A DNA stretch of 64,000 nucleotides, from contig JAFWJF010000001.1 of NCBI GenBank assembly GCA_017511715.1, forward strand, positions 2,892 to 66,891, in the 5' to 3' direction. Source of the DNA: Alphaproteobacteria bacterium (lineage in GTDB: Bacteria > Pseudomonadota > Alphaproteobacteria > Rs-D84). Below the pieces are notes generated by a model. That model ran no database searches and had not been told where the DNA came from. It worked only from the letters and a program-made list of their open reading frames with translations. This document shows positions 2,611-61,437 of this stretch, one piece after another; position 1 is the first letter of the stretch; every line of letters begins with the position of its first letter. Made by a program: the position numbers and the translations under genes.

Positions 2611-2663
2611 AAAAAATAAATCGCCCAAAAGGCGATTATCTTTTGGTGCGGGCAAAGGGAATC
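2611..2663. repeat. direct repeat DR1: terminator hairpin plus duplicated 3' end of tRNA-Gly(CCC)
   Basis: 53-bp copy (one mismatch) of 2791-2843. It contains aaataaatcgcccaaaaggcgat and the last ~20 nt of the minus-strand tRNA (tggtgcgggcaaagggaatc). Confidence 0.8.
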
Positions 2664-2790
2664 ACTCGACACTTCGTGTCTGTGTGGCAATCGTGACGAT
2701 TTTGGTGCGTTACACTTCCAAAATCTACTGCTTGTCGAACCCTTCGTTGCTGATGCAACTCTGGTCGGGTTCGCTTCCCTGCCCTTGGTA
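2664..2790 (-). mobile_element. tRNA-3'-end-associated repeat element, copy 1 (127 bp, bounded by DR1/DR2)
   Basis: Its reverse complement aligns closely with 32130-32243 (caacgaag..gggttcgacaagcagtagRttttggaag..cgcaccaaaa..acgattgcc..). It is immediately followed, in tRNA orientation, by the duplicated tRNA 3' end. Confidence 0.65.
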
Positions 2791-2843
2791 AAAAAATAAA
2801 TCGCCCAAAAGGCGATTATTTTTTGGTGCGGGCAAAGGGAATC
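2791..2843. repeat. direct repeat DR2, overlapping the genuine 3' end of tRNA-Gly(CCC)
   Basis: Identical to 2611-2663 except one base. Confidence 0.8.
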
Positions 2844-2897
2844 GAACCCTCGTCTAAAGCTTGGGAAGCTTTCGTTCTGCCATTATACCATGCCCGC
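2824..2897 (-). tRNA. tRNA-Gly (anticodon CCC)
   Basis: Reverse complement gcgggcatggtataatggcagaacgaaagcttCCCaagctttagacgagggttcgattccctttgcccgcacca. Cloverleaf with 7-bp acceptor stem, T-loop GGTTCGATTCC, encoded CCA. Confidence 0.85.
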
Positions 2898-3045
2898 AGA
2901 AACCGACCCAGTGATGATATATCTTTTTGTTTGAAATGTCCAGTGATTTTAATGCGCAAATGCAATTTTCTGCCTTTATTTATATATTGTGTGTATGCAA
3001 TAATCAGTCTGTTAGATGTTTTTTGGTTGTATAAAAGGTGTTCGT

Positions 3046-3642
3046 ATGACTAATAATGAAATTAAAGATACACTTAAGCAGGCAAGTCGCTTGGTTAATA
3101 CGATGGACAAAGAACATATAAAAAATTTATTAAGGGTATTTGTTGACGCGCAGTTTGAGAAAAACTGTGCGTCTTTCTTTTATATAGATATAAAAAAGAC
3201 ACTTAAAAAATTGTTAAGTGATTTGGTTAAAACAGAGCATGTGAACGGGGTTTTGAATCGTAAACAAATGAAGCAGGTTTTTGAGATAATGGGTGATTAT
3301 GGCTTTCGCCCTATATGCAAATTGTGTGGCAAACCAATAGAAATTAATTCCGTCAACCAAAGACATAAAGACCAGTTGAAAAATATGGCTTTCTCGTGGG
3401 ATCATCAGGTGCCAAAGTCAAAGGGTGGCAGTTATGATTTATCTAATTTGCAACCAACACATAAATTATGTAATAATAGACGCGGAACAAAGCCATTATA
3501 CAGCAGACACTATAAAATCAAGTTAAACATTGAACTTTCTGTAGAGTTAGAAGAACAAGGAACACGATATCGTCCTGCCAGCTTCGGTTTGCGAAAACAA
3601 GATTCTTGGTGTCATAAACAATGTTGCCAACGGCAAAGATAA
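3046..3642 (+). CDS. HNH endonuclease family protein
   Basis: Motifs CKLCGKPI...WDHQVPKSKGGSYDLSNLQPTHKLCNNRRG (HNH with zinc-binding Cys). Adjacent to the tRNA-Gly locus. The ORF could start at 3016. Confidence 0.6.
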   Translation: MTNNEIKDTLKQASRLVNTMDKEHIKNLLRVFVDAQFEKNCASFFYIDIKKTLKKLLSDLVKTEHVNGVLNRKQMKQVFEIMGDYGFRPICKLCGKPIEINSVNQRHKDQLKNMAFSWDHQVPKSKGGSYDLSNLQPTHKLCNNRRGTKPLYSRHYKIKLNIELSVELEEQGTRYRPASFGLRKQDSWCHKQCCQRQR

Positions 3643-3830
3643 TGTCTAACAAATATTTGACTTTTGATAAAATTTGATACATAATTACTGCGCAAATCCC
3701 AAAGATTGCCATTGTAAACGACCCTGTGTGCGGTATGCACAAGGAACATCAACCGGCGAGTTTTCGCTCTTGATGCGCGTTTTTGTGTGGCTTTTTTGGG
3801 AAAAATAACAAAAAACAGGAGTAAAATAAA

Positions 3831-4280
3831 ATGGCAACAGTTATCAGATTGGCACGTTATGGTGCAAAAAAACGCCCCTATTATCATATTGTAGTCACAG
3901 ATTCTCGTAATGCGCGTAATTCTGGGGCGATTTTGGAAACAGTTGGTAAATATAACCCAATGTTAGCAAAAGACGATGCAAAACGCGTTGTTTTAGAAAT
4001 TGAAAAAGTAAAAGCATGGATGGCAAAAGGTGCAAAAGCATCTGACCGTGTTTACAAATTCTTGGTAAATGCTGGCTTGGTTGCTGCAAAACCAGTTCCA
4101 ACACAAACCAAGAAAAACCAACCTTCAGAAAAAACTCAAATGAAGGCAAAAGATAAAGCTGAAAAATTGGCTAAAATAGCAGAAGAAAAAGCCGCTGCAG
4201 AAGCAGCCGCAAAAGCCGCTGCGGAAGCACCGACAGAAACACCAGCAGAAGAACCTGCTGCTGAAGCTGTTGCTGAATAA
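3831..4280 (+). CDS. rpsP: 30S ribosomal protein S16 with Ala/Glu-rich C-terminal extension
   Basis: N-terminus MATVIRLARYGAKKRPYYHIVVTDSRNARNSG is canonical S16. Tail EEKAAAEAAAKAAAEAP. Confidence 0.9.
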   Translation: MATVIRLARYGAKKRPYYHIVVTDSRNARNSGAILETVGKYNPMLAKDDAKRVVLEIEKVKAWMAKGAKASDRVYKFLVNAGLVAAKPVPTQTKKNQPSEKTQMKAKDKAEKLAKIAEEKAAAEAAAKAAAEAPTETPAEEPAAEAVAE

Positions 4281-4348
4281 TATCTTTTTGTTTTTTGATT
4301 ACTTGGCGGGCATCCGCCAAGTGAATTGTTTTTAAGAAAGGTACAAAA

Positions 4349-4648
4349 ATGAAAAAAATGTATGTCATCCCAAATATAGAGATTGTGCGTTTGGTGGGGA
4401 CTGGTTTTTTTGCAATAAGCACAGAAGAACACACAATAAAAAAGGTTTTTTGTTCGGAAACACGTTGCCCGTTTAATAACGAATGGTGTGTGGATAAACA
4501 AAAACGATTGGATGCTTGGCATAAGGCTGTAAACTATTTTGCAAAAAATCGTTCTAATGTTAGTTTTTCTACATCTGCAAATATGTTTGATGGTTGTCCT
4601 AATGGATATAAGTTTTTGTGCGGAGCATACAAACAAAAACAATGGTAA
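4349..4648 (+). CDS. hypothetical Cys-containing small protein between rpsP and rimM
   Basis: 99-aa ORF with an AAGG RBS-like sequence and no known motif. Confidence 0.3.
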   Translation: MKKMYVIPNIEIVRLVGTGFFAISTEEHTIKKVFCSETRCPFNNEWCVDKQKRLDAWHKAVNYFAKNRSNVSFSTSANMFDGCPNGYKFLCGAYKQKQW

Positions 4649-4651
4649 GAC

Positions 4652-5113
4652 ATGGATAGCAACAATAAAATCTTGGTTGGAAAAATTGTTGCCCCCCAAG
4701 GTATTCGGGGTGAATTTCGCGTGCAATCTTTTGCCGAAAAACCAGAAGATTTCAAGGGCTTTCGTATTGTTTGCGACAGATTTGATGCCGAAAAATTTCA
4801 TTTTGTTCGTGTGTTAAAACAAAATGTTATTATCGCAAAAATTGATGGTGTTGATGACAGAAACACCGCAGAATCTTTGCGTGGAACAGAATTGTTCGTT
4901 TTTCGTGATGATTTGCCAAAATTAAAAGAAAACGAATATTATCAATCTGATTTAATAGGCTTTGATGTTGTTCGTGATGGTAAAAAAATTGGGGTCGCAG
5001 ATTGTTTCCAAAATTTTGGTGGTGGCGACATTATTGAACTTGATAATGGCGAAATGGTTTCTTTTGTTGGGGCCAATGTTGATTTTGATAATCAAGTTAT
5101 AAATGTGAAATAA
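4652..5113 (+). CDS. rimM: 16S rRNA processing protein RimM
   Basis: ILVGKIVAPQGIRGEFRV motif and conserved position in the rpsP-rimM-trmD-rplS operon. Confidence 0.85.
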   Translation: MDSNNKILVGKIVAPQGIRGEFRVQSFAEKPEDFKGFRIVCDRFDAEKFHFVRVLKQNVIIAKIDGVDDRNTAESLRGTELFVFRDDLPKLKENEYYQSDLIGFDVVRDGKKIGVADCFQNFGGGDIIELDNGEMVSFVGANVDFDNQVINVK

Positions 5114-9505: not shown

Positions 9506-10741
9506 TTGATGCTGCAAAAACCAGAACCATTTGTTAAACCAGATATGATATTCAGTGTTTCTGATGCATCAATGCTGTTGAAAAAAGTTGTAGAAACGGC
9601 TTTCCCTGAAATACGGATTCGTGGTGAATTGTCGCAAATTACACATGCTACATCGGGGCATTTGTATATGACAATCAAGGATGCCGGGGCGGCAATAAAT
9701 GCGATTATTTGGCGCGGAACACCGGTTAATTTCAAGTTAGAAGAAGGCGCAGAAGTAATTATAACTGGGCGGTTTACCACCTATCCTGCGCGCAGCAATT
9801 ATCAAGTAATAATTACGTCAATTGAAATGGCTGGCGTTGGCGCGATTCTTAAAATGTTGGAAGAAAGAAAGCATAAATTGGCTGCGGAAGGTTTGTTTGA
9901 TGAATCACGCAAAAAACCTTTGCCACGTTTCCCGCAAACAATTGGCGTGGTAACCAGTCCGACAGGCGCAGCATTTCAAGATATCCAAAACAGATTGCGC
10001 GAAAGATTCCCAGTGCATGTGTTGCTTTATCCTGCAACAGTTCAAGGAGCAACAGCAGCAGAAGAAGTTGCCGCCGGTATTGAATATTTTAATCGCATGA
10101 ATAATGTTGATGTTATTATTGTTGCGCGCGGTGGCGGGGCGTTGGAAGATTTGCTGCCTTTTTCTGAAGAAATTGTTGTGCGTGCTGCTGCAAATAGCCG
10201 TATCCCGCTGATTTCTGGTGTTGGACACGAACCGGATTGGATGTTGATAGATTTTGCCGCCGATGTACGTGCCCCAACCCCAACTGGTGCGGCAGAAACT
10301 GTCGTGCCAACAAAAATATCACTGATTCAAGAATTGGATAATTTATCACACAGATTAAACACTGCTTTTATAACGCATTTGGGAAATCTTAAGCGTGGCT
10401 TGGCAAATATAACGCCCAAAAGCCCGAAGCAAGTTCTTATGGAACAATCTCAAAGACTTGACGATTTGTCGCATACAATGGATATTGTAATCGATAAAAA
10501 ACTGCAATATGTTCATCAGAAAATAGAATTAATGTCGCGCTTCCCTATGATTTTATCAAACAAATTGATAACACTAAATCAGTCTGTCCAACACATGGGT
10601 CAGATGTTAAATTCTTTGTCGTATAAAAATGTTTTGCAACGTGGATATGCGATTGTTCGTGATAAAGATAACAAAATTATAAGCACCTATTCTGCGGTTC
10701 CCGATTCCATTGAATTTGCAGACGGAATATTAAATTTATAA
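9506..10741 (+). CDS. xseA: exodeoxyribonuclease VII large subunit
   Basis: N-terminal OB-fold (IRGELSQITHATSGHLYMTIKD) and VIIVARGGGALEDLLPF motif. Confidence 0.85.
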   Translation: MMLQKPEPFVKPDMIFSVSDASMLLKKVVETAFPEIRIRGELSQITHATSGHLYMTIKDAGAAINAIIWRGTPVNFKLEEGAEVIITGRFTTYPARSNYQVIITSIEMAGVGAILKMLEERKHKLAAEGLFDESRKKPLPRFPQTIGVVTSPTGAAFQDIQNRLRERFPVHVLLYPATVQGATAAEEVAAGIEYFNRMNNVDVIIVARGGGALEDLLPFSEEIVVRAAANSRIPLISGVGHEPDWMLIDFAADVRAPTPTGAAETVVPTKISLIQELDNLSHRLNTAFITHLGNLKRGLANITPKSPKQVLMEQSQRLDDLSHTMDIVIDKKLQYVHQKIELMSRFPMILSNKLITLNQSVQHMGQMLNSLSYKNVLQRGYAIVRDKDNKIISTYSAVPDSIEFADGILNL

Positions 10742-10880
10742 TATGTGCCGGGTGTTGAATACAGCCTGCCAGAAAAATAATTGGAATTTAGTTTTTTTGT
10801 TGTATTCAACAAAATGCTTGGTAAAATGGTACTTCCGTATTATTTATATATGAGTGTAAAGACGCAAAAAAGGATAAAAT

Positions 10881-11351
10881 ATGCTAAAATGCCCAAAAAA
10901 ACCAACATATGCAAGCAAATTACCAAATGAAGATCATCCTGTTGTTTGGGCTGATTTACCGTTCGCTATTGAAAAAATATTGTATATGGAAAACGTTACT
11001 GCACGCCGTAGCGGTGCCACCAAGGACTATGACCATATATTGATAGAAAAAACAGATGTTGATAAAACATCCGGACAAAAAAATAAAAAATTACTTTTCG
11101 AATTTATTGAAGACATAAAATCTGAACGCGGATGTATTTACACTGGCAACAATCAATTAATTTATGCCGGGCATTTTCTTTGTGAAGAAGATGGGATTGC
11201 TGATATCTTTAATCAGGTTTTCTTTACAGTGACAGCAAATCATACTAATTCCCTTTTGCGAGAAGCGAAAGAGCAGAAAAAAATGTGTCCTGCGACAGAA
11301 CCAATATTTAATTATATTTTGCCGATATTGTACGAAGCTCGTACACGGTAA
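10881..11351 (+). CDS. hypothetical protein
   Basis: 156-aa ORF followed by a bidirectional terminator. Confidence 0.35.
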   Translation: MLKCPKKPTYASKLPNEDHPVVWADLPFAIEKILYMENVTARRSGATKDYDHILIEKTDVDKTSGQKNKKLLFEFIEDIKSERGCIYTGNNQLIYAGHFLCEEDGIADIFNQVFFTVTANHTNSLLREAKEQKKMCPATEPIFNYILPILYEARTR

Positions 11352-11370
11352 AATATTAAAGTAATATAAA

Positions 11371-11395
11371 AAACACCCGTCAGGGTGTTTTTAAT
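11371..11395. terminator. bidirectional rho-independent terminator
   Basis: aaaaaacacccgtcagggtgttttt hairpin between convergent genes. Confidence 0.6.
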
Positions 11396-13043
11396 GTTTA
11401 ATCAAATTCTTTGCACTTGCCAGTGATTCTGGTGTAATTTCTGCACCACTGATTATGCGGGCGATTTCATTAAGTCTTTCTTCGCCGGTTATTTCATTAA
11501 CAGAAGTTGTGGTGGTGTTTTGTTCGCTGTGTTTTGATATCTTAAAGTGTTTGTCGGCGAAACCGGCGACCTGGGCGGAATGGGTTATAACCAACAATTG
11601 TTCGTTTTTAGCAAGTTTATTTAACCTTTCACCAACAGCAGCGGCGGTTGCGCCACTTATCCCGGTGTCTAATTCATCAAAAACGATAGTCTTTTTATTT
11701 GTTGGGTTATTAAGAACGACACGCAGTGCCAACATAAAACGCGATAATTCGCCGCCTGATGCGATTTTGTTTAATGGGGCGAATGGTGTGCCTGGGTTTG
11801 TTTTTATCATAAAAGTAATGTCGTCAATGCCGTTTATGTTTGGGACAGTTGTTTTTATATCAACGTTGAAATCTGCCGAACCTAATTTCAGGTCTGGCAA
11901 TTCGGTCAATATTTGTTTGCGCAGGTTTATTGCGACGTTTTTGCGCAAATCAGACAATTCTTTGGCGCATTTATTAAAAACAGCAGAATATTGACTTAGC
12001 GCGGTTTTGCATTTTTTCAATTCCGCATCACTGTTGTCGATTGCGTTTAACTGTTTTTCCATTTCGGCTAACTTTTTAGGCAAATCATCGGCGGCACAGC
12101 GGTGTTTCCTTGCTGCAGCACGAATTGCAAACAGCCTTTCTTCAACAGAATCTATGTCTTCAACATTGGTGTTTTCAGGATGTATTTGTTCGCTGATTTC
12201 TGCAACTGTTGACGCGACATCGTATAATTTATCTATGGTTTCAGAATACGGGTTGGGGTCGGTTTTTATCCGTTCCAAAATGTGCGCAACCGAACAGATT
12301 TGTTCATCCAGTGAATTACCGTTGTTTTTCAGAATGTCCAATGCGTCATTCAAAATACCAGAACTTTTTTCTGCATCCATCATCTTGGCGCGCACGGTTG
12401 CTAATTCTTCTTCTTCGCCAATTTGTGGGTTAAGGTTTCGCAGTTCGGTTACATTGTGTTCCAAGAAATCGCGTTCGGTTTCCGATTTTTCCAGAATTTC
12501 TGTCAGTTGTTTCAGTTGTTTTTGCGCGCTGGCTAAATTTTTGTACGCTTTTTGCGTATCGGATAAAATGTTTGTGAATTTGTTGTCTTGCAATTTTGCG
12601 TATTCATCCAAAGATGTTAAATGTGTGGAAGGGTCTAAAAGAGAATGATTATCAAATTGCCCATGAATTTCGACAATTTCATCGCCGATTTGTTTCAAGA
12701 TTTTTACAGACACTGGTGTATCGTTAATCCATGCCCTGCTTTTTCCATCCAGAGATAATGTTCTGCGTAAAATTAAGCCATCGTCATAATCTATGCCGTT
12801 TTCATTTAATACTTCTTTGACTTTGTCGTTGACGGAATCAAATTCTGCCGTTACAGACGCATTGTCGCAACCTGCCCTTATTAAACCGATATCAGAACGC
12901 GCGCCCAGTGCCAAAGATAATGCATCCAATAAAATGCTTTTTCCCGCACCTGTTTCGCCGGTCATGATATTAAGCCCGTCGCCGAATTCCAAATTCAGTT
13001 TTTCAATCAAAACGATATTAGAAATATATAAACTTGTTAACAT
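11391..13043 (-). CDS. recN: DNA repair protein RecN
   Basis: N-terminal MLTSLYISNIVLIEKLNLEF..GETGAGKSIL Walker A. C-terminal ABC signature ASGGELSR and Walker B IVFDELDTG. Confidence 0.9.
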   Translation of the reverse strand: MLTSLYISNIVLIEKLNLEFGDGLNIMTGETGAGKSILLDALSLALGARSDIGLIRAGCDNASVTAEFDSVNDKVKEVLNENGIDYDDGLILRRTLSLDGKSRAWINDTPVSVKILKQIGDEIVEIHGQFDNHSLLDPSTHLTSLDEYAKLQDNKFTNILSDTQKAYKNLASAQKQLKQLTEILEKSETERDFLEHNVTELRNLNPQIGEEEELATVRAKMMDAEKSSGILNDALDILKNNGNSLDEQICSVAHILERIKTDPNPYSETIDKLYDVASTVAEISEQIHPENTNVEDIDSVEERLFAIRAAARKHRCAADDLPKKLAEMEKQLNAIDNSDAELKKCKTALSQYSAVFNKCAKELSDLRKNVAINLRKQILTELPDLKLGSADFNVDIKTTVPNINGIDDITFMIKTNPGTPFAPLNKIASGGELSRFMLALRVVLNNPTNKKTIVFDELDTGISGATAAAVGERLNKLAKNEQLLVITHSAQVAGFADKHFKISKHSEQNTTTTSVNEITGEERLNEIARIISGAEITPESLASAKNLIKH

Positions 13044-18149: not shown

Positions 18150-18594
18150 CTTTTATTTGGTGTTTTTTTCTGTTAAAATAACTCTGTCGGCAAGAGTTTT
18201 GCCGATGGGGTGTCAGAACCCGTTTCGATGCGCGTCCATGATGACGTTAAAACTCCAACCAAATTGGGTTGGAGGGCTGCAAAATATATTGAATATGCAC
18301 ACAATTTCGCATTGAATTGTTCTGAACCTCCAACCGCCTGAAATTTCATGCGGTTTTTTTGGTGTTTGTCCCTTTCGTTGGGGTGTTGTGTGGCGATACA
18401 TACGCAAACATTTGCCACCGTCCCCCGAATAAAAGGGATAAAAAAGTTCTCCTCCGTTGGAGGAGTCCCCGCAGGGAGAGGTGGTCTTGAAAGGATGCCA
18501 GATATTTCAAATTCTTGAAAAAGACCACCCCGCCGTTCCGGCACCCCTCCGCAGGAGGGGAACTGGAAGCAGAGCGAATACAAAAAAAGGACAG

Positions 18595-18742
18595 AGAGAA
18601 TACAAGCAAGGTTTTGGAAACGAAGTGCACCGAAACCGTTGCGGTATACACGCAGACACAAAGTGTCGAGTGAATACGAGAACAAATAATTAGAAAAATC
18701 TTAAAAAATCGAAGTTTACAAGATTTTTTTGATTTTAATTAT
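18595..18742 (+). repeat. tRNA-associated repeat element, copy without tRNA duplication (long variant); likely carries a promoter
   Basis: ggttttggaaacgaagtgcaccgaaaccgtt...cacgcagacacaaagtgtcgagtg matches 32186-32243 and the reverse complement of 2664-2720. The 3' 75 bp matches 38622-38697. A TTTACA-N17-ATTATT promoter-like sequence and a GGAGG RBS lie directly upstream of 18763. Confidence 0.55.
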
Positions 18743-18762
18743 TGTTTATCGAGGAGGAAAAA

Positions 18763-26343: not shown

Positions 26344-26432
26344 GGAGCGTTGGCAGAGTGGTAATGCAGCGGATTGCTAATCCGTGACCGTGTTATAGCG
26401 GTCCATAGGTTCGAGTCCTATACGCTCCGCCA
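26344..26432 (+). tRNA. tRNA-Ser (anticodon GCU)
   Basis: ggagcgttggcagagtggtaatgcagcggattGCTaatccgtgaccgtgttatagcggtccataggttcgagtcctatacgctccgcca. Long variable arm, CCA encoded. Confidence 0.85.
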
Positions 26433-31263: not shown

Positions 31264-31354
31264 GGAGATGTGGCAGAGCTGGTTGAATGCGCGTGACTCG
31301 AAATCACGTATACGGGCAACCGTATCGGGGGTTCGAACCCCTCCATCTCCGCCA
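31264..31354 (+). tRNA. tRNA-Ser (anticodon CGA)
   Basis: ggagatgtggcagagctggttgaatgcgcgtgactCGAaatcacgtatacgggcaaccgtatcgggggttcgaacccctccatctccgcca. Long variable arm, CCA encoded. Confidence 0.85.
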
Positions 31355-31369
31355 GAAAAAAGGTTGTTT

Positions 31370-31948
31370 ATGAACAAAAATTTGCACGATATTATTTTTT
31401 CAATATACGAATATTTTGGCAAGGATAGAGAAAAACTTGATGAGGCGCGGTCCGAATTTTACCGTATTGGCGAAGCCAACCCACGTGTAGCCCTTATGTT
31501 ATATCGAGCATTATTGACAGATTATATAAACCAAAAAAAGAAAAAAATTGCTTTAGCCGATACAATGCGAATATATTTGATAGTTTCTACTAACGCAGAC
31601 TTTTATCTGATACACCCTATTGATGCATTGTCCATGCCAGAAGCAGATAAGTTCTATGAAACATATCACATAAGATATCCGCGTTCATCAACCATATCAA
31701 AAATCTTAATTAACATGAACAGATTTGATTCTGACAAACCAAAAGGCAAACTAGATTTTAAGAACAAATTGCGCGTAAAATATACAGTAAAAGATTCAAA
31801 CTATCCACACTCGTTCAATAAAAGGATGTTTTTACTGAATAAAAATCGCATCAGCAAAGATACCGTATATAAGAAATTAAGCGGATTAAACAAATTTTTC
31901 ATAGCACAAGCCTATAAAAAATACTTGAAAAAACAAAAATCTTTGTAA
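31370..31948 (+). CDS. hypothetical protein inside the tRNA-Ser islet
   Basis: 192-aa ORF (MNKNLHDIIF...) lying between the tRNA and the duplicated tRNA 3' end. Confidence 0.4.
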   Translation: MNKNLHDIIFSIYEYFGKDREKLDEARSEFYRIGEANPRVALMLYRALLTDYINQKKKKIALADTMRIYLIVSTNADFYLIHPIDALSMPEADKFYETYHIRYPRSSTISKILINMNRFDSDKPKGKLDFKNKLRVKYTVKDSNYPHSFNKRMFLLNKNRISKDTVYKKLSGLNKFFIAQAYKKYLKKQKSL

Positions 31949-31962
31949 AAAGAAATCACACA

Positions 31963-32108
31963 TCAAAATCATATGAATTAACAGATTTTACAATCGCATC
32001 AACCAATTTGTTTTGATGAGAATCTGATTTTAATAATTTTTCTTCGTTTTTGTTGGACAAATGCCCCAGTTCTATCAATGCACCCGGTACAGTCGAACGC
32101 AATACTGG
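31963..32108. repeat. direct duplicate of the 3' end of amiC (~145 bp, one mismatch), partner at 33898-34042
   Basis: tcaaaatcatatgaattaacagattttacaatcgcatcaacc...cgaacgcaatactg present twice. Confidence 0.85.
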
Positions 32109-32258
32109 TCATTTTTTATTTATCGTGTATGGGTATGGGGTTAGACGCTACAACGAAGTTGTTGGGTTCGACAAGCAGTAGGTTTTGGAAGCAAGGCGCA
32201 CCAAAACCGTTACGATTGCCCCGCAGGCGAAAGCCGAGGAAATCCTCCATCTCCGCCA
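32109..32258 (+). mobile_element. tRNA-3'-end-associated repeat element (short variant) ending in a duplicated tRNA-Ser(CGA) 3' end
   Basis: Core caacgaagttgttgggttcgacaagcagtaggttttggaagcaaggcgcaccaaaaccgttacgattgcc, about 85% identical to the reverse complement of 2664-2760. The final 15 nt cctccatctccgcca equal 31340-31354. Confidence 0.7.
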
Positions 32259-32288
32259 TAAATAAAAAAAGACACAAACCGGTCTTTT

Positions 32289-33875
32289 TTATCTGCTGTT
32301 GTCAGGAATTGTCTTGTCCTGTGTTTTTGTAGTTGTTTTTTTTAACAGTTTTTTTACTGCATTTTTCAATTTTTCTTTTTTGCTTTCCCCTTGCATTTTC
32401 AATTTCAGTTCGTTTGCGAAATCTTTAAACTTTTCATGCAAAACAATTGATACTTTGTGAGGTTCTGGTTTCACAAAAATATTATCACTCCATAAAAAAT
32501 CACTCCCTATTCCTTTAACATTTGGCAGATTTATCGACTTTAAGTTTGTATTTTCAGTTAAAAATTCATCGCCAATATCTTCTACTTTCGGTAAACTTAT
32601 TGATGTTAACATTTTATTGTAATACAAGAATCTATTACCAATTTTTTCAACTTTTGGCATGTTTATTGATGTTAATATTTCGTTATTTTCCAAGAAATAG
32701 TCGCCAATTCTTTTTACAGATGGCAAATCTATTGATGTCAATGCGTTATTAGAATTTAAGAAATGCATACCGATTTGTTCGACCTTTGGTAGCGCTATTG
32801 ATGATAACATCTTGTTCTTCACTAAGAAATCACAACCAATTTTCTTAACATTTGGTAAATTTATTGTTGTTAAACTTTTGTTGTGTTCTAAAAAAACGTC
32901 TTTAATTTTTTCTGTTGTAGCTAAATCTAATTCTATAATCTGCCCTTTGAATATTACAATACGATTGCCGTCCAGTGTGGATAACGTCGTTTCTTTTGTT
33001 ATTTTGTTATATGTTCTGGTAACTTTTTTCCCGTTAAATGCCAGATAAAAAACATCAAATGTTGTGCCGTAATCAATTGGTGAAGTTATTGTTTTATCTT
33101 TATCATTATAAATCATGCCATCAAACATGATTTCGCGGTCTTTGTTCAATCGTGTAATTGTGCCACCAGTAAAATAATAATCGTCACCGATGTAAATGTT
33201 GTCTCTTTCAAAACTGTACCAGACCAACTGGTCATTAACCCAAACATAGTTATTTGGCATTTTAATATCAGAAACATTGAATTCTACATCAAAGAATTTT
33301 CGCAATGAATTTGTAAGTCCCGGGATGATATTATCTGGGTTATTACCGAATGTTGCATCTGGATTGTTTACTGTATGGTTATAACGATTTTTAATAGATA
33401 TAAATCCACCACCCTTTGCAATTTGAATTGATATAACAGATGTTCCGTATTCGTCTTCGCGTTCTGGATTTGCGGATGGTTTTATTTTGTCTGCGCCACG
33501 TTTTACCGCATGAATTATATAAAAGTTTTCATGCCTATTGGGGTCACTGAAAGTACATAATTCTTCGCCGGGGCGATAATATTTTTTTATTGAATCTTTT
33601 TGTTTTTTACTTTCAACTATAAACGCGTCATAGCCCGCTTCATCTAACAATTCTAACGGCTTTTTATCTGTGGTATATTGGGATGCAGACATTATTTTAC
33701 ATTTAGACCGGATTGTTGGTATCAATCTTTCTAGATCTTCTAATTGTGTAAATTCTAATATGTGTTCAATATTTGGAACATCCAGCAATTCGGCATTGCG
33801 AAGAATCTTGGCAAAACGTTCACCGCGATGCTTTTTAATATTTTTAAAAACTTCGGCTGTATCTATTTCTTTCAT
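32289..33875 (-). CDS. BspA-type leucine-rich repeat protein with unknown N-terminal domain
   Basis: C-terminal tandem repeats of about 23 aa (LPNVKKIGCDFLVKNKMLSSIALPKVEQIGMHFL...). No signal peptide. Confidence 0.7.
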   Translation of the reverse strand: MKEIDTAEVFKNIKKHRGERFAKILRNAELLDVPNIEHILEFTQLEDLERLIPTIRSKCKIMSASQYTTDKKPLELLDEAGYDAFIVESKKQKDSIKKYYRPGEELCTFSDPNRHENFYIIHAVKRGADKIKPSANPEREDEYGTSVISIQIAKGGGFISIKNRYNHTVNNPDATFGNNPDNIIPGLTNSLRKFFDVEFNVSDIKMPNNYVWVNDQLVWYSFERDNIYIGDDYYFTGGTITRLNKDREIMFDGMIYNDKDKTITSPIDYGTTFDVFYLAFNGKKVTRTYNKITKETTLSTLDGNRIVIFKGQIIELDLATTEKIKDVFLEHNKSLTTINLPNVKKIGCDFLVKNKMLSSIALPKVEQIGMHFLNSNNALTSIDLPSVKRIGDYFLENNEILTSINMPKVEKIGNRFLYYNKMLTSISLPKVEDIGDEFLTENTNLKSINLPNVKGIGSDFLWSDNIFVKPEPHKVSIVLHEKFKDFANELKLKMQGESKKEKLKNAVKKLLKKTTTKTQDKTIPDNSR

Positions 33876-33890
33876 TTTGTTATTCTCTTT

Positions 33891-35084
33891 TTAAACGTCA
33901 AAATCATATGAATTAACAGATTTTACAATCGCATCAACCAATTTGTTTTGATGAGAATCTGATTTTAATAATTTTTCTTCGTTTTTGTTGGACAAATGCC
34001 CCAGTTCTATCAACGCACCCGGTACAGTCGAACGCAATACTGCAAATGGCGCATGACGGACAGATGGGCCTTTTTGTTGTTCTATGCTTGCGCGATTAAA
34101 CGATTTAGCACATCCATTTGCGTATTCTTCGCTTAATTCTGCAACAGCACGTTGTTGCAGTGAAGACAAGGCAACACGAATATCTTTGGAAAATTGTTCA
34201 AATCCGTTAACATCTATTTTATCCGCAGCATTTTCTGAATCTGCCAATTTTTGCGCTTCTTCGTCTGATGCTTTTTCAGACAAAGTATAAATTGAAAAGC
34301 CCTTCATGTCACGACTTGGGTTTGCGTTTGCATGCAAAGAAATGAATAAATCGGCGTGTTTCTTTTCGGCAAATTCTGCGCGTTCTGCCAATTTAAGAAA
34401 AGTATCATTAGAACGAGTCAGGTATGTTTTGTATCCGTTTGCTTCCAGTTTGCTTTTCAGTTTTTTTGCGACAGACAAAACAACCGTTTTTTCTTGTGTG
34501 CCACCACGCCCTGTACATCCCGGGTCTTTGCCACCATGTCCAGGATCAATAACTATGACACGTTTCGCAGAATTATTATTTGTTGTTGATTTTGTTTCTG
34601 ACTTTGTTGCTGTTTTTGCAGTCGTTGTTGATACGGGGGCTGATACGTCTATTCCGCGCCCTGTCCCGGCAGCAAAATCAATAACCAACCGATAATCGTT
34701 ATCGCCATTTGGTTCCAGAATCATTATTTGTTTTTTATCAATCGCGTCTATAAGCCCAGATAATGCACACAACACCTGTAATTTCGTACCATCTTGAATT
34801 TGGGTGACGCGCTTTATCATTGTGTCGTTTGCCAGTTTTGGCTGTATACTGCTGCTGCCCGAAGTGTTTGACAGATTTACAATTAACTGTTTGTCACCAT
34901 AAGATAAATCATATACTGGACGTGAAGAAGTTTCGATTACTAATCGTGTCTTGCCGCCTGGTTGCAGACCTGTTCTTATTGAACGCACCGCATTCGGTGC
35001 AGAAAAAGCAACACGTGGTGCAATCCCAACGACTAACGCACTGAAACTAACTGTCCTTAAAAGTTGTCTGCGACTTAATTTCAT
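33891..35084 (-). CDS. amiC: N-acetylmuramoyl-L-alanine amidase (AmiC-like; Tat signal, AMIN and Amidase_3 domains)
   Basis: Tat motif SRRQLLRTVSF and amidase core VIVIDPGHGGKDPG...LFISLHANA. The ORF could start at 35132. Confidence 0.9.
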   Translation of the reverse strand: MKLSRRQLLRTVSFSALVVGIAPRVAFSAPNAVRSIRTGLQPGGKTRLVIETSSRPVYDLSYGDKQLIVNLSNTSGSSSIQPKLANDTMIKRVTQIQDGTKLQVLCALSGLIDAIDKKQIMILEPNGDNDYRLVIDFAAGTGRGIDVSAPVSTTTAKTATKSETKSTTNNNSAKRVIVIDPGHGGKDPGCTGRGGTQEKTVVLSVAKKLKSKLEANGYKTYLTRSNDTFLKLAERAEFAEKKHADLFISLHANANPSRDMKGFSIYTLSEKASDEEAQKLADSENAADKIDVNGFEQFSKDIRVALSSLQQRAVAELSEEYANGCAKSFNRASIEQQKGPSVRHAPFAVLRSTVPGALIELGHLSNKNEEKLLKSDSHQNKLVDAIVKSVNSYDFDV

Positions 35085-35162
35085 GAGAATCATTATATCA
35101 AAAAAAAGACATGGTTTCAAGAAAAGTTGCAATAAAAAAAACCGCCACTGTGGCGGTTTGAT

Positions 35163-38458: not shown

Positions 38459-38535
38459 GCACCCATAGCACAACTGGATAATGCGTTGGCCTCCGAAGCC
38501 AAAGATTGCAGGTTCGAGTCCCGCTGGGTGCGCCA
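38459..38535 (+). tRNA. tRNA-Arg (anticodon CCG)
   Basis: gcacccatagcacaactggataatgcgttggcctCCGaagccaaagattgcaggttcgagtcccgctgggtgcgcca. Confidence 0.85.
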
Positions 38536-38539
38536 TGAA

Positions 38540-38572
38540 TAAAAAAAGACCCAGCAGGGTCTGTTTTTTATT
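38540..38572 (+). terminator. rho-independent terminator after tRNA-Arg
   Basis: aaaaaaagacccagcagggtctgtttttt. Confidence 0.6.
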
Positions 38573-38575
38573 CAC

Positions 38576-38712
38576 TTATGAAGCACCGCGGGACAGGTCA
38601 GAGCGAAGCGCATGACCAATCCGCAGATAAACAATTAAGAAAATATTAAAAAATCGACGTTCACGAGATTTTTTTGATTTTATTTATTGTTTATCAAGGG
38701 CTGGGTGCGCCA
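38576..38712 (+). mobile_element. tRNA-associated repeat element (long variant) ending in a duplicated tRNA-Arg 3' end
   Basis: 38622-38697 is about 85% identical to 18667-18742. The upstream part is a diverged version of the core (aagcgca..acc.a.ccgcag). It ends with gctgggtgcgcca, equal to 38523-38535. Confidence 0.6.
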
Positions 38713-41011: not shown

Positions 41012-44000
41012 ATGGCGGGAATCAAGCCTTTTTATAACATGTTAAAGCGTTTAATATTTGCAATATTCGTAGTGTTTACTGCAAATTCTGCATTTGCGGC
41101 GTGTGCTAGCAATCAAATTGATGTAAATGGTGATGGAACCAAATGTGAGGATGTGAAATTCACATTAGACCTTTCCAGAAGTTCAAACATAACGGTTTTC
41201 AATTTCTTTATGTCTGCCAAAGGAACATTTTATGTCGATTGCGGCAATGGCGGAACATTGACCAGCAATTCTGCCACTAATTACCCGGTATCGGGCAAAA
41301 CAGTTAACCGTACCTATGGAACGGGTAATGTAAGGTACTCTTGTACATGGGCCAATGGCAGCAAGACACAAACAATTAGGTTTGGTGGGGTTGCAGAAGG
41401 ATATAGCACCAATACAAGCACCGCCGCAATACGTTTTAATTATAATGCAACACAAGCGGCATATATAACATCAGTTTCTGGTAATTTGTCCGCTATGTTC
41501 CCGTATATTACAAACAATGCACAAAGTGGTGCACAACCAAGATTTTATATGACTTTTGATAAAGCGACAAACCTGAAAAGTATCCCCGATACATTGTTTG
41601 CAAATTACACAACACCGGCAACAAATATGTTTCATTCTACGTTTAACAATTCAGGATTGACATCAATACCTAGCAATTTGTTTTCCACCATATCTGGCGC
41701 AGCAGAAGGTCTGTTTTCTAGCACATTTAATGGATGTACCGGCTTAACATCAATACCTGGCAATTTGTTTTCCACCATATCTGGCGCAGCAAACAGCTTG
41801 TTCTATGGCACATTTCAGAATTGTACCGGCTTAACATCAATACCTAGCAATTTGTTTTCCGGGGTGTCTGGCGGGGCAAGTTCTATGTTTTTTTTCACGT
41901 TTAAAGGATGTACCGGCTTAACATCAATACCTGGCAATCTGTTTTCCACCATATCTGGCGCAGCAAACAGCTTGTTCTATGGCACATTTAGTGGATGTAC
42001 CGGCTTGACATCAATACCTAGCAATTTGTTTTCCACCATATCTGGCGCAGCAGACGGTCTGTTTTCTAACACATTTAATGGATGTACCGGCTTAACATCA
42101 ATACCTGGCAATCTGTTTTCCGGGGTGTCTGGCGGGGCAAGTTCTATGTTTTCTTACACGTTTAATGATTGCAGTTCGATATCTGCAATACCGGCAGGAC
42201 TATTTTCCGGTGTAAACCAGGCGGCAACAGGTTTGTTCATGAATGCATTTTCTGGTTCTGGGGTAAGTGGTTATATACCACCGACCACATTTTCCGGGTT
42301 GATTTCGGCGGGCAGCCCACAAAGTTCAGATATGTGGCTAGATACATTTTCATACACGAATTTAACAGCGACTTGTCCACAGGGAACAACGCAGTATATG
42401 ACAGGATACGAAGGTGGCACTAATGGTCCTACATGGAATGGGATGGTTTCTTGTACGCCAAATTCGACCACTGCAATTGCAGTAACTTTGGACAGTGCAG
42501 GCGCGACCACAAATGCCACACCTTCGACAATATATCTTCGATACGAGGATCGTTGGTACAGTAATTCTGCCCTTTCTGTTCAGATAAGTTCGCTTAACAC
42601 CATTCCATCAAAAACGGGATATATGTTCGGCGGTTTTTACACTCAACCAAATGGTTCCGGAATACAAATTATCAATTCAAATGGTTACATCTTGCAAACC
42701 ATGGAAGCAATCACGTTTACAACCACACCGACAACCGTGTATGCTTATTGGATAGAACCAAAGTTCACATTAACAACATCATCGACCAACAGTTTTCAAT
42801 TTAAACTATCTGCCGCTGGTACATTCTATGTAGACTGCGGAAACGGTGGAACGTTAAGTGGAACCGGGGCGTCCGGAAACACAATTACGCGTGCCGACAC
42901 AACCGAAGCGACATATACATGTTCATGGACCAACAGTGCAACACGAACAATCAGATTCAGCGGTGCCGCAACCGGGTATAATTCGTCTTATGGTGTTGCA
43001 GCAATAAAGTTTAATATGACAGATGCTGCCACTGATGCAAACGCAGCATTGTTAACGGGTATGTCTGGCACACTGGGGTCAATATTCGGAACAGTTGCCA
43101 CCGCCAGCACAGGCTCTGTTCAACCAGCATTTAATAAGACATTTTATGGTGCATCAAACCTTAATGCGTCAATACCGTCAAACTTTTTTGCGGGCGTTCA
43201 TGGTGCACCACGCGGGGGAATGTTTCAACAAACCTTTTCTGGATGCAGCAGTTTGACCGGCTCTATCCCAGAAACCCTATTCTGTGAAAACACGACCAAT
43301 CCAAGTGCATCAAACTGTATCTATGGAGCACCAATTGGGGCAATGTTTGAACATACATTCCTTGGTTGTAGTGGTTTGACGGGTTCTATCCCAGAAAAAC
43401 TGTTTGTGGGTATCCATGGCGCGCCTGCAAGTTATATGTTTTCTCAGACATTTAATGGATGTAGTGGTTTGACGGGTTCTATCCCAGAAAAACTATTCTG
43501 TCAAAACACAACCAGCCCATCTGCATCAAACTGTATCTATGGCGCACCGGCATCATCTATGTTTGCCTTGACATTTTATGGATGTAGTGGATTAACTGGC
43601 TCTATTCCAGAAAAACTGTTCGTTGGTATCCATGGTGCACCAGCAAATAATATGTTTCAACAAACATTCTATAATTGTAGTGGTTTAACTGGCTCTATTC
43701 CAGAAAAACTATTCTGTCAAAACACAACCAGTCCATCTACATCAAACTGTATCTATGGCGCGCCGGCAAGAGCTATGTTTTTTCACACTTTTTCTGGTTG
43801 TACAAATTTAACTGGTTTGATACCACAAAACCTTTTCAAAGGGATATACGGCGCGCCGGCAGAAAATATGTTTAATGGTACATTTAGGAATGACAACAAA
43901 TTGACAGGAATAACCGACGGCACAACTACCACAACCTATGTTCCATCAACATTCCTTAGCGCGATTAACAACACAAGCGCAACAACACCAGCAACAGGAA

Positions 44001-47000
44001 TGTTTACTGGTACGGGGCTTGCATCGTCTTGTCCGACGTGGGCAGCCGCCGCAACACCGGTATGGGCAACTGATGCTGGTAAGCCATGGTGCGAACCAGA
44101 TATAAAATTCACATTAAACACATTAGCGACTAACAGTTTTCAATTTAAACTATCTGCCGCTGGTACATTCTATGTAGACTGCGGAAATGGCGGAAGGTTA
44201 AGTGTGGTAAACGGTAACGGAACAGTTTCTGGGAATACGATAACAAAAACAGGTACTTCGTGGGGGACATTTGAATGTTCTTGGGATGATACCGAACCAC
44301 AAACACTTCGATTTGGTGGTGCAGCATCAGGGTACACTGCAAGCCAATCAGGCGGTGCAATAAGATTTAATGTTTCTGATACAAACCAAGATGATGATAC
44401 AAACGCACCAAAGATCACCGGAATATCCGGGTCATTGGGTGCAATATTTGGAACCATAGATGGCACGGTTTCCCCAACAGGCGCGGAATCACAACCAAGA
44501 TTCTATGGAACATTTTGGGCTGCATCCAACCTTGCTGGTTCAATACCAGACGAGCTTTTCTATGGCATACATGGCACACCAATATCATATATGTTTAACC
44601 GTACTTTCCGTGGTTGTAGCAGTTTAACTGGAAAAATACCTGAAACATTATTCTGTCAAAACACAAGCAACCCAAATGCATCAAACTGTATTTATGGCGC
44701 ACCGACACAACAGATGTTTTACATGACTTTTCACGGATGTAGCGGTTTGACAGGAAATTCTTCAACCGGATATGCCATTCCTGCAAAATTATTTGCAGGT
44801 ATTCGTGGTGATCCATCTTCAGCATCGAGTGTGTTTGGTTATACATTTTCCGGTTGTAGTGGTTTAAATGGGCAAATACCTGAAACATTATTCTGTCAAA
44901 ACCCGAACAGCCCCAGTGCATCAAACTGTATCTATGGTGCGCCGGCATCAAATATGTTTTCATTTACATTCCAAGGATGCACTGGTTTGACAGGTGACGG
45001 TATACATGCCGTTCCAGTAAAGTTGTTTGCAGGTCTCCATGGCGCGCCGGCACCAAAAATGTTTCAATCTACTTTTACTGGCGACACAGGATTGACAGGG
45101 GAAATTCCACCTGCGCTATTCTGTGGTGGTAATACGAATAATCTGAGTAATCCATCTGCCTCAAACTGTATCTATGGCACCCCGGCAACAGAAATGTTTA
45201 ATAGTACGTTTTATAATACTAGAATAACACATGTAGATAAAAATATGTTTGCGGGGATATCCGGTACTTCTGCGGAAAAGATGTTCTATCGTACATTTAA
45301 AAGTTGTAGTTCATTGTCGTACATAAATGATACCTTTAACACAAAAGCGACAACTTACATTCCGTCAGATTTCCTTGGTGGCATTACTGATGGATCCGTG
45401 ACAAATGACGCAACAGAAATGTTCACAGGTACGGGACTCACATCACCTTGTCCGACGGGGACAGCCACCGCAACACCGGCGTGGGCAACGGATGCTGCCA
45501 AACCATGGTGTGCACCCAACACATATAGCATTACATATGATATGAATGGTGGAACAAACTATTCCGGCGCACCTACAACATATGTTTATGGGACAAGTAC
45601 AACAATTAATGGCGCACCAACAAAATCAGGCTATATATTCAAAGGATGGACTGGTTCTAATGGTTCAACACCACAACCAACCGTGACGATTGGTGCAAGT
45701 GCCACCGGGGCAAAATCTTACACTGCGAACTGGGAAACGGCAAAATTCACATTAACCACATCAGGAATGAGCGATTTCAGCTTCAAGCTTTCGCCAAAGG
45801 GAACATTCTATGTCGATTGCGGAAATGGTGGAACGTTAAGTGGTCAAAGCGCGTCCGGCAGTACAGTTTCCGTCAACACAATCACACGTACAACCACAAC
45901 CGCAACAACATATACTTGTAGCTGGGCCAGTAGTGCTGGAAACAAAACAATATCTTTTGGCGGGTCTGCCACAAATACCACAACAACATATAACTCAGAT
46001 ACGAACGTACCAGCAATACATTTTTTGGAAAGTAGTAATGCAGACTCAATCAAAAGCGTATCTGGTAATTTGTCCGCGATGTTCCCGTACATCACATCAA
46101 ATGCACAAAGTGGTGCTCAACCAAGGTTTAACAGAACATTTTATGATGCAACACACTTGACCAGTGTTCCCGATACATTATTCGCAAATTATACCACACC
46201 CGCAACATATATGTTTAGTAATACATTTGCAAGTTCTGGGTTAACATCGATACCGGCGGGACTGTTTTCCCGCATAACCGGTGCAGCAACCGGTTTGTTC
46301 GAGGGTACATTTAGCGGTGCGCGCTTAACATCAGTGCCGGCGGGGCTATTTGCCGGGATATCTGGTGTGGCAGACAGTTTGTTTAATAGCACATTTACTG
46401 GCACACCAATAACATCTATACCAGAGAATTTGTTTGCCGGGGTATCGGGGTCTGCATCTGGCGTGTTTTCTTACGCTTTTTATCGTTGCGCTAGCCTGGC
46501 CACCATAACAAATGGGCAAACAAGTACGACCTATGTTCCGGGAACGTTCCTTAGTGATGTTACTGGCAATGACAATTACATTGGTGCCGACATGTTTGGC
46601 ATGACAGACTTGGCTGACACCTGTCCATATGGTATGGGCGATACAACACCGGCATGGGCAAGTGATGCTGGTAAACCATGGTGTTCTCCCAATACATATA
46701 CAATAACCTATTCTGCCGGTCAAGGTGGCGTTGGTGCAAACCAAACGGAAAACGTTGTGTTTGGCACCACATTTACCACAAAATCTGCAAATACGTTTAG
46801 TAAACCACACGCTACATTTACAGGCTGGGATACTCTTGAATACTCTTCAGCCTGGACACAACCAGATACAACATATACTTATGATTTGCCGTCAGATATT
46901 ACGATTGCAGCACAATGGACATGTGATTCTGGATACACATTAAATAACAGCACCGGAAATTGCGATGCCAACAGTATCACATGTGATCCAGGTTTTTATC

Positions 47001-61311: not shown

Positions 61312-61335
61312 CACCCTTTCGGGTGTTCAAACTTT
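61312..61335 (-). terminator. terminator following the duplicated tRNA-Gly(GCC) 3' end
   Basis: Plus strand aaaaaacaccctttcgggtgttcaaac. Minus strand is a hairpin plus T-run. Confidence 0.5.
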
Positions 61336-61348
61336 GGTGCGAGCAAAG
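61333..61348. repeat. duplicated 3' end of tRNA-Gly(GCC) (tttggtgcgagcaaag), partner at 61436-61451
   Basis: 16-bp exact direct repeat flanking an 87-bp insert. Confidence 0.75.
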
Positions 61349-61437
61349 TACTTCGGCAACTAGCGTTGCCTCGCCTCGCAACTCGCCCCTTTGCCGCAAA
61401 AATCAAAAACCGCCCTAACGGACGGTTTTAAAATTTT

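Follow-up and report, generated by a model that had tools for sequence, protein, structure and literature searches.

We report that four of the five transfer RNA (tRNA) genes in a 64-kb stretch of a contig from an uncultured alphaproteobacterium (JAFWJF010000001.1; the whole stretch is hereafter called the window) are followed on their 3' side by a small unit that is terminated by an exact repeat of the 3' end of its own tRNA. The conserved core carried by two of these units recurs elsewhere behind tRNAs of many types, and its hairpins are kept by compensatory substitution. Among the interpretations considered, we tentatively favor the one in which the units are integrase-less, repeat-bounded miniature cassettes that are gained and lost through recombination at copies of tRNA 3' ends and contain a structure-constrained module. 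We rank it above a resident family of noncoding RNAs (ncRNAs), a folded single-strand DNA substrate, and inert scars of former islands, in that order; the first three are not mutually exclusive.

ARAGORN and Rfam called five tRNAs within the window. A sequence-only reading of the same stretch had described an insertion behind four of them that ends in a repeat of the tRNA 3' end, and this observation holds, with repeats of 53, 15, 13, and 16 bp for tRNA-Gly(CCC), tRNA-Ser(CGA), tRNA-Arg(CCG), and tRNA-Gly(GCC), respectively. The conserved sequence that it reported is genuine: each half was found twice in the window vs. 0 expected in 100 shuffles. That sequence was said to be shared by three tRNA inserts; it is present in two of them (2664-2790 and 32130-32243), whereas the third copy (18598-18674) lies away from a tRNA. 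A filters-off covariance search of the window returned three core copies (2661-2736, 18598-18674, and 32170-32242) and no others. In addition, whichever strand the tRNA is on, the sequence keeps a constant orientation to it, as had been claimed. That reading, which was largely right once corrected on the points given here and below, did not include the secondary structure, the inverted complement specific to each tRNA, the T-loop slot as the site of the core, or the copies away from tRNAs.

In the orientation of the tRNA, the order of parts is the tRNA with its bidirectional terminator, a framework, Arm 1, a core of ~75 nucleotides (nt), ATCC...CCA, and a second terminator; the units span 90-190 bp and are gene-less. 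The framework starts with the complement of the acceptor-3' and T-stem-3' strands of the tRNA and in effect repeats the entire region from T-arm to acceptor, imperfectly and in inverted form (for tRNA-Arg-ACG, CCCAGCAGGAT vs. ATCCTTCTGGG), and the unusual GGTCCGA of tRNA-Met is present in Met units. Arm 1 (GAACC(C)...(G)GGTTC), sometimes with an inner GTTGC/GCAAC hairpin, repeats at its end the T-stem 5' strand together with TTCGA. Since the core is flanked by TTCGA on one side and by ATCC on the other, it occupies the T-loop slot of a partial tRNA copy. The dinucleotide GA stands at both core junctions (TTCGA followed by CAAC..., and ...GAGNGA followed by ATCC), tRNA-unlinked copies follow ...GGGA, and head-to-tail arrays join ...GAGGGAA to CACAAG.

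This layout can be followed in the unit behind the intact tRNA-Gly(CCC) (2824-2897, minus strand; ARAGORN and Rfam), a gene with a promoter-like TGGACA-17-TATCAT at 2942-2914. The proximal copy of its 53-bp repeat (2791-2843, minus strand) consists of the last 20 nt of the tRNA, from T-loop G57, and the bidirectional terminator (stem 2799-2817), and it differs by one mismatch from the distal copy (2611-2663, minus strand), which is composed of the tRNA 3' end copy GATTCCCTTTGCCCGCACCA and a terminator (2619-2637). The framework (2737-2790, minus strand) contains a segment complementary to the tRNA 3' end (AAGGGCAGGGAA) and Arm 1 (GAACCC...GGGTTC) around the hairpin GTTGC-ATCA-GCAAC, together with the T-stem 5' strand copy and TTCGA. 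Next comes the conserved core, or part 1 (2661-2736, minus strand; 96.7 bits with the covariance model), with Arm 2 (CAAG/ATTG, GTA/(C)AC, GATTTTGG/CCAAAATC, and the tip GU[GUA]AC) and Arm 3, in which CAC/GTG closes GACAC-GAA-GTGTC. In the predicted fold, the distal repeat pairs with the 5' segment of the framework (minimum free energy of -50.2 kcal/mol, z = -4.5). A free-standing HNH endonuclease gene (3016-3642) lies directly upstream of this tRNA and is divergent from it.

The last 15 nt of tRNA-Ser(CGA) (31264-31354, plus strand; ARAGORN and Rfam), i.e., 31340-31354, are repeated at 32244-32258, where the copy of the 3' end (CCTCCATCTCCGCCA) is followed by a terminator (32244-32290, plus strand). 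The second core copy (32170-32242, plus strand; 76.6 bits) precedes this repeat, and its helix H1 (GGTTTTGG/CCAAAACC) and Arm 3 (GGC-GAAA-GCC) both show compensatory differences from the Gly-CCC core. It is separated from the tRNA by a stretch (31355-32169, plus strand) that includes a weak framework and an open reading frame (ORF; 31370-31948, 192 aa) that matched nothing in Pfam or PHROG. A 148-bp direct repeat (99% identical; 31960-32107 and 33895-34042), whose second copy is the 3' end of an amidase gene (33891-35132, minus strand), brackets the core, the repeat, the terminator, and a BspA-type leucine-rich repeat gene (32289-33875), an arrangement suggesting that this block was recently inserted or duplicated.

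The two other units lack the core. Behind tRNA-Arg(CCG) (38459-38535, plus strand; ARAGORN), the unit (38536-38712, plus strand) consists of a terminator, the 5' complement of the tRNA end (GCACCGCGGGA), a hairpin, a module termed part 2 (38618-38699), and the repeat GCTGGGTGCGCCA (38523-38535 and 38700-38712, 13 bp). The unit of tRNA-Gly(GCC) (61438-61514; with its unit, 61333-61514, minus strand) comprises a terminator, the inverted complement (GCGGCAAAGGGGCGAG), one or more hairpins, and the repeat CTTTGCTCGCACCAAA (61436-61451 and 61333-61348, 16 bp), and it has only the general layout of inverted complement plus repeat in common with the others. The fifth tRNA, tRNA-Ser(GCT) (26344-26432, plus strand), serves as an unoccupied comparison site with a terminator only; the same tRNA type is occupied in locus L005.

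To determine the distribution of the element, a degenerate DNA pattern was run over GTDB species genomes, JGI metagenomes, and IMG/VR, followed by the covariance model R1. The pattern matched 27 loci in the GTDB species genomes, of which 25 are in Enterousia-like alphaproteobacterial metagenome-assembled genomes (MAGs) and 2 are chance matches in coding DNA, as well as 41 loci in the JGI metagenomes (about 33 of them real) and none in IMG/VR. All of the relatives found belong to Ca. Enterousia-like gut and rumen MAGs, with only one or two exact pattern matches per species genome. A contig identical to that of the window is present in an ENA metagenome assembly. R1 yielded 82 hits, 71 of which are distinct. 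The preference for tRNA 3' ends that had been proposed is borne out by these copies: 43 of the 71 are located 3' of a tRNA on the same strand, 34 of them at a distance of up to 150 nt and another 9 at up to 1 kb, about 15 lie behind tRNA 3' fragments or at a locus edge, and about 12 form a class without a tRNA link. None of the 43 tRNA-linked copies is inverted relative to its tRNA. The association of one family with several tRNAs also held, with the core present at 15 anticodon classes (four Arg-type, Gly, Met, three Ser, two Pro, two Gln, Tyr, Lys, and Leu), and in loci outside the window repeats of 13-21 nt follow at a fixed offset after the core.

Our data show that the core consists of two irregular hairpins (Arm 2 and Arm 3) with strong covariation. 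Among 65 distinct sequences aligned to R1, 93.8% of the cells are paired, as compared with 81.5% in shuffled sequences and 30-47% when partners are slid; 21 of the 25 core pairs have changed on both sides, and the covariation score is 0.307 vs. 0.113 in shuffles, with 0 of 500 shuffles reaching any of these measures. The R1 alignment is fitted to the model and thus favors structure, and an independent RNAalifold analysis of a plain MAFFT alignment agrees: it recovered H1, the H1 tip, the CNC/GN'G helix, and the variable hairpin, with double changes at 7 of 15 pairs. One row of the R1 seed alignment is a chimera assembled by hand; for all pair counts, only natural hits were used (alignment A4). 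Units beside recombinase islands have the same scaffold with wholly different H1 helices (ATTACGC/GCGTAAT, ATTTGGC/GCCAAAT, and ATTTGCC/GGCAAAT). Given that the hairpins are kept by compensatory substitution, the core must act as a folded single strand at some stage, and we consider RNA more likely than DNA to be the folded form. Most whole-unit folds are predicted to be multi-arm junctions in which the 5' complement pairs with the copy of the tRNA end to form the closing stem and NCCA stays free. In the window, fold z values are -4.5 (Gly-CCC), -5.3 (Arg-CCG), -1.35 (Gly-GCC), and -0.25 (Ser-CGA), and pairing between the 5' segment and the tRNA end is stronger for cognate than for non-cognate combinations (means of -13.8 vs. 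-11.2 kcal/mol, p = 6e-4).

The units are also modular. Near-identical ATTTTGG-type cores occur in unrelated tRNA-specific frameworks (Met, Gly, Arg-ACG, and Arg-CCG) in different MAGs, and other structured inserts in the same position (L011:3740-3900 and L039:260-362; for example, GGGGGTTCGA, then gccgtaggcgaaagggacccatggagtgaaaacgaacatgggaattaca, then ATCCCTCACCATCCGCCA) indicate that the T-loop slot accepts more than one module family. Part 2 is a hairpin module resembling miniature inverted-repeat transposable elements (MITEs), about 82-85 bp long, with inverted ends of ~13 bp (GATAAACAAT...ATTGTTTATC) and an outward promoter-like site; besides its two copies in the window (18673-18754 and 38618-38699), it was seen in L008, L022, L023, L027, L054, and L071. 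The unit itself departs from a MITE, as its end repeats vary with the tRNA and range from 13 to 53 bp and its core has no terminal inverted repeats. Core arrays occur in L008, as (core plus part 2) twice and then a core, and in L018, as three cores with a 74-nt period, and whole-unit arrays occur in L013, L030, L035, and L075. Degenerate repeats and truncated units are found in L006, L016, L019, L035, and L079. In L023 (5815-6200, minus strand), positions 1-59 of tRNA-Arg-CCG are present in a perfect copy that joins a core and part 2 at the T-loop, after which come a TATAAT-type promoter and an intact tRNA, so that the 5' part of the tRNA is duplicated and not the 3' part. The core-less units of L081 (3100-3250 and 11539-11700) each consist of the inverted complement, a spacer, and a 32-nt copy running from the T-arm to CCA, and each folds into an acceptor stem and two arms and leaves CCA unpaired (z = -2.9). 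In L022, a 96-aa GIY-YIG gene lies between tRNA-Gln and its core plus part 2.

Copies away from tRNAs are sited between tandem genes for Flg_new/InlB-repeat surface proteins, either with their own GC-rich closing stem and extra hairpins or in a gene leader jointly with part 2. The third core copy of the window (18598-18674, plus strand; 84.1 bits) is of this class: it lies in the leader of a surface-protein gene, behind a cluster of GC-rich hairpins (about 18350-18597). It is joined to part 2, a long AT-rich hairpin (18673-18754, plus strand) with the outward promoter-like site TTTACA-16-AATTAT (18715-18742), directly upstream of the ribosome-binding site and ATG (18764) of a Flg_new-repeat surface protein gene. 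Part 2 of the Arg-CCG unit (82 nt) is 83% identical to this copy. The clusters of short GC-rich hairpins (for example, CTCCTCCGTTGGAGGAG, CCCCTCCGCAGGAGGGG, and CCCCCGTGGGGG) near tRNA-unlinked cores, between surface-protein genes, represent another repeat family in an otherwise AT-rich genome; apart from the window (18350-18597), they were seen in L010, L040, L041, L047, L049, L051, L058, and L061. A further ORF of the window (41012-51613) encodes 3,533 aa of diverged tandem repeats (periods of 87, 216, and ~1,850 nt), is rich in Cys motifs (CxxCPAGKYC-like), and presumably specifies a giant surface protein.

Comparison of related strains revealed that units come and go as whole blocks. L076 and L077 have no unit (island, then AGGTGCGCCA, then ggaatttaacc...), whereas L078, which has an identical recombinase protein, contains one block of terminator, unit, and ATCCTTCTGGGCGCGCCA exactly at the L076/L077 junction, with the unit between ...GCGCCA and the shared terminator ggaatttaaccgcc.... 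Unit combinations vary as well, with units 1 and 2 in L026, unit 1 only in L028, and unit 2 only in L067. Look-ups with proteins of the window returned no record of an empty site in other strains.

Larger elements at the same tRNAs are separate from the units. In L016, a 4.4-kb island with a 523-aa large serine recombinase (3156-4727), which has about 50 homologues at ≥45% identity, lies between tRNA-Arg-ACG and the unit. In all 10 Enterousia-type loci retrieved (L071-L080), the recombinase gene (about 10001-11575 in each) is antisense to tRNA-Arg-ACG and overlaps its 3' end, the frame of this ~520-aa clade running into the last ~45 nt of the tRNA. A MerR-like gene is conserved in these islands (4.5-11 kb), and their cargo varies (KAP NTPase, AAA_21/DUF4435, and PEGA/OMP surface proteins). 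They have their own right junction, namely ...GTGTTCCAAC... followed by GGTGCGCCA, or in fuller form ...GGTGTTCCAACTTTT(T/A)TGAATAT followed by (A)GGTGCGCCA, with a repeat of only 8-12 nt, and the block of terminator, unit, and repeat is distal to it. Large-serine-recombinase islands, which we had at first accepted as carriers on the basis of L016, were therefore rejected, given that their own junction and short repeat are proximal to the unit; a recombinase crossover in the T-loop was likewise discarded, as the crossover of the islands is located around GG at positions 68-69 of the tRNA. In L081, a MAG with different neighboring genes, recombinase P0039 (50% identical) is found at tRNA-Ala-GGC, and core-less units flank a type III restriction-modification island on both sides, which indicates that this island integrated into the repeat of the unit and not into the tRNA. 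A prophage end (L021:2657-6714; ParB-methylase, DUF5681, and large terminase) and a pair formed by a prokaryotic Argonaute (pAgo; Piwi domain) and a DpnII-like nuclease (L011:218-3537) each lie directly tRNA-proximal to a displaced unit, and one further island is likewise placed between tRNA and unit. Recombinase islands, a prophage, and a defense island in this position mark the units as displaced resident features rather than as arms of those elements.

These results also bear on the origin proposed by the sequence-only reading. Its attR-like layout stands as regards the repeats, the arrays, and the filled/empty differences, whereas no recombinase element using a unit as att arm was found, there being no complete island of this kind in the 11 recombinase loci. 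An intact copy with an integrase, which it had asked for, was sought and none was found. The notion of islets left by related integrases does not agree with the different right junction of the serine-recombinase islands, outside which the unit lies, and "decayed" is a doubtful description of a core whose fold is kept via compensatory changes and whose divergence, at the same tRNA locus in different MAGs, is no faster than that of a neighboring protein gene. The other option, a small non-autonomous element, is supported by the repeats, the arrays, and the unit-level strain differences.

We postulate that whole units would be gained, lost, and duplicated as blocks via recombination between tRNA 3'-end copies; the block-wise step itself is seen in the arrays and in the exact filled/empty differences. 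The enzyme could be a site-specific recombinase acting in trans, such as one of the large serine recombinases specific for tRNA 3' ends that are frequent in these genomes, or units might instead move via short-homology recombination. Larger elements would then insert at the tRNA and displace the units away from it. In this scheme, the core is a separate module for the T-loop slot, which other modules also occupy, and it is found outside tRNA contexts as well. A read-through or weakly promoted transcript might be made, and its paired tRNA-like end with free NCCA might be processed and stabilized like a tRNA.

Several observations weigh against this scheme. Inside the units, neither a recombinase nor a transposase was detected; a T/C polymorphism in L078 puts the unit crossover 3' of the island's own crossover, and the island recombinase is thus not clearly responsible for the unit. 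The difference between L076/L077 and L078 could be a deletion and not an insertion, and the distal flanks also differ. Ser-type units barely form the outer stem. The strand test gave no clear preference, with 26 G-U-type vs. 42 A-C-type cells and 27 of the latter from one marginal pair. Purine-rich loops (GAA, AAA, and GAAA) favor the tRNA-sense strand. A consensus scan identified no sigma-70-like promoter for tRNA-linked units, bidirectional terminators flank the unit, and neighboring genes converge on it, all of which weakens the RNA step. Finally, units at tRNA-Arg-ACG share 0.61-0.82 nt identity across MAGs vs. 0.65-0.80 for the adjacent M48 peptidase gene, and such gene-like divergence agrees at least as well with a function in place as with turnover of elements. 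The differences among these units are concentrated in compensated stems, which argues that they are not decaying neutrally.

In the nearest alternative, which we consider rather unlikely, the units would be a resident ncRNA family ("tRNA-trailer RNAs") expressed via terminator read-through or a weak -10-only promoter, with a tRNA-mimicking closing stem and free NCCA, cut by RNase P and trimmed and stabilized like a tRNA, whose arm internal loops would bind protein or RNA. The strong covariation with conserved unpaired nucleotides would be expected of such RNAs, as would a tRNA-specific complement that leaves NCCA single-stranded, a terminator right after CCA as in tRNA genes, and the purine-rich loops on the tRNA-sense strand. 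The tRNA-Arg-ACG units, conserved like a coding gene and with stems that swap compensatorily (ATTTGGC/GCCAAAT vs. ATTTGCC/GGCAAAT), point the same way, and there is a conceptual resemblance to E. coli RtT RNA. However, besides the missing promoter and the strand counts, an apparently good terminator stands between tRNA and unit, units displaced by islands to several kilobases away retain the same form, the arm triplication (L018) and the whole-unit arrays are odd for a functional RNA, and strains differ in whether a site is filled or empty. Moreover, an Rfam scan of the window placed only the five tRNAs above the gathering threshold, with no family over the units; the RtT model reached 12.7 bits (gathering threshold of 45, E = 9) and tmRNA_permuted reached 12.4 (threshold of 47).

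A broader possibility, which we judge less probable still, is that the units form a new class of tRNA-end mimics, either folded RNA or single-strand DNA, in which the closing stem would reproduce the acceptor and T-stem of the neighboring tRNA and a dedicated mechanism would insert interchangeable structured modules into the T-loop slot. Their role might be that of tRNA-like processed regulatory RNAs or of spare landing sites for tRNA-targeting recombinases; the L081 island did enter the repeat of a unit and not the tRNA.

It is quite improbable, in our estimation, that the core, and perhaps the whole unit, is a folded single-strand substrate for transposition or recombination. In a variant of the IS200/IS605 insertion sequence type, or of the type of repetitive extragenic palindromic (REP) sequences and REP-associated tyrosine transposases (RAYTs), subterminal hairpins would direct insertion 3' of a short motif ending in ...GA, as in the T-loop TTCGA; in a variant similar to CTX phage or integron attC sites, two inverted copies would fold into a target-mimicking duplex. 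Such a process would agree with the strictly fixed orientation relative to the target strand, a core without terminal inverted repeats, the GA at both core junctions, which may be either a duplication or a crossover site, and the ...GGGA ahead of tRNA-unlinked copies. The invariant (A)GTAG at the 5' foot of H1, which we take to be comparable to REP sequences, and the CNC/GN'G pairing that brackets the 3' hairpin, presumably akin to the pairing of guide and cleavage site in IS608, are further points in its favor. Inverted and direct copies of the tRNA end could fold as a mimic of a duplex tRNA gene end, and the missing promoter would be accounted for if the hairpins were under selection without being transcribed. 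On the other hand, a tblastn search with an approximate query detected no Y1/HUH transposase in about 0.7 Mb of fetched loci, the exact pattern occurs only once or twice per species genome with three core copies in the window, and most copies occupy T-loop slots, although a 5-nt target would predict many tRNA-free sites. Moreover, the large serine recombinases of these loci act on double-stranded DNA.

Least probable is that the units are decayed attR ends of formerly complete tRNA-integrating islands, without present activity or function. The order of tRNA, unit, and tRNA 3'-end repeat is the classical attL/attR picture, degenerate or truncated units do exist (in the five loci listed above), and minimal units have no genes, but compensatory changes far above the shuffled and slid controls, conservation equal to that of a neighboring protein gene, near-identical cores at different tRNA types in different MAGs, and the lack of a complete island with a unit as its own arm in the 11 recombinase loci all speak against inert scars.

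Other candidates were rejected. A hammerhead ribozyme (framework GAUGAG...CGAAA) fails on the absence of C3/U4, on a motif that varies (GATTTGA, GAAGCGA) and equals the T-arm complement, and on the lack of an Rfam hit. A tRNA pseudogene or tmRNA-like gene is at odds with the absence of any ARAGORN or Rfam tRNA call over the units, and the 5' part of a unit is an inverted copy of the tRNA 3' third and not a tRNA 5' half. An inverton is contradicted by the single orientation of all 43 tRNA-linked copies, and a viral origin found no support in IMG/VR, which had no match to the DNA pattern or to the recombinase. As for a homing endonuclease as driver, the HNH gene of the window and the GIY-YIG gene of L022 are single cases with no homologues at other copies.

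tRNA genes are classic landing sites for mobile DNA, and the partial-tRNA scars beside them are usually treated as debris. The tRNA-side "debris" described here is instead a lineage-wide, structurally constrained, modular family that copies the tRNA 3' end and pairs with it, and our literature searches returned no description of such an element. Should the units prove to be mobile, lacking as they do a recombinase, they would represent a new type of miniature integrative cassette and would record the growth of genomic islands in gut bacteria with reduced genomes; should they be RNAs, they would constitute an undescribed family with tRNA-like ends and without an Rfam model. Under either reading, covariance model R1 offers a practical means of searching metagenomes and metatranscriptomes from rumen and gut.

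The units share features with several known systems. In E. coli, the tyrT-linked repeats that specify RtT RNA are units that follow a tRNA, each with a tRNA 3'-end copy as its last part, and they are released from the tRNA transcript by processing. Our units are alike in being repeated behind a tRNA gene with a tRNA 3'-end copy each; they differ from RtT RNA (RF00391) in showing no sequence or structure homology to it, in the architecture of their arms, and in being found at many tRNA types in a different phylum-level lineage. REP sequences and bacterial interspersed mosaic elements (BIMEs), BOX, Correia, and Rickettsia palindromic elements are likewise small, hairpin-forming, and modular, and the core, part 2, and GC-rich hairpins of our elements similarly combine or repeat in tandem and are placed after terminators and in gene leaders, part 2 having an outward promoter-like site as Correia elements do. 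Unlike these palindromic repeats, the units are anchored in the T-loop slot, have a tRNA-specific closing stem and a low copy number, and have no known associated transposase.

With integrase-less remnants and cis-mobilizable elements (CIMEs) at tRNA genes and with the partial-tRNA "snippets" of the Prochlorococcus tycheposon island model, in which newer integrations cause distal displacement (10.1101/2020.12.28.424599), the units share their position 3' of a tRNA, the tRNA 3'-end repeats that bound them, tandem accretion, and distal displacement. They are distinguished by their size of 90-190 bp without genes, by the covarying module, by the tRNA-specific inverted complement of the repeat, and by the fact that no element with a unit as its own att arm was found; furthermore, tycheposon integrases are tRNA-specific tyrosine recombinases, whereas here one module family serves at least 15 tRNA classes. 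The Dehalococcoides ssrA islands are tRNA-end-specific serine-recombinase islands (PMC3146451), and the serine-recombinase islands of the present lineage resemble them in integrating at the extreme 3' end of tRNA-Arg-ACG or tRNA-Ala with repeats of 8-12 nt. The difference is that these islands have their own right junction, while the structured units lie outside the islands and appear to predate them.

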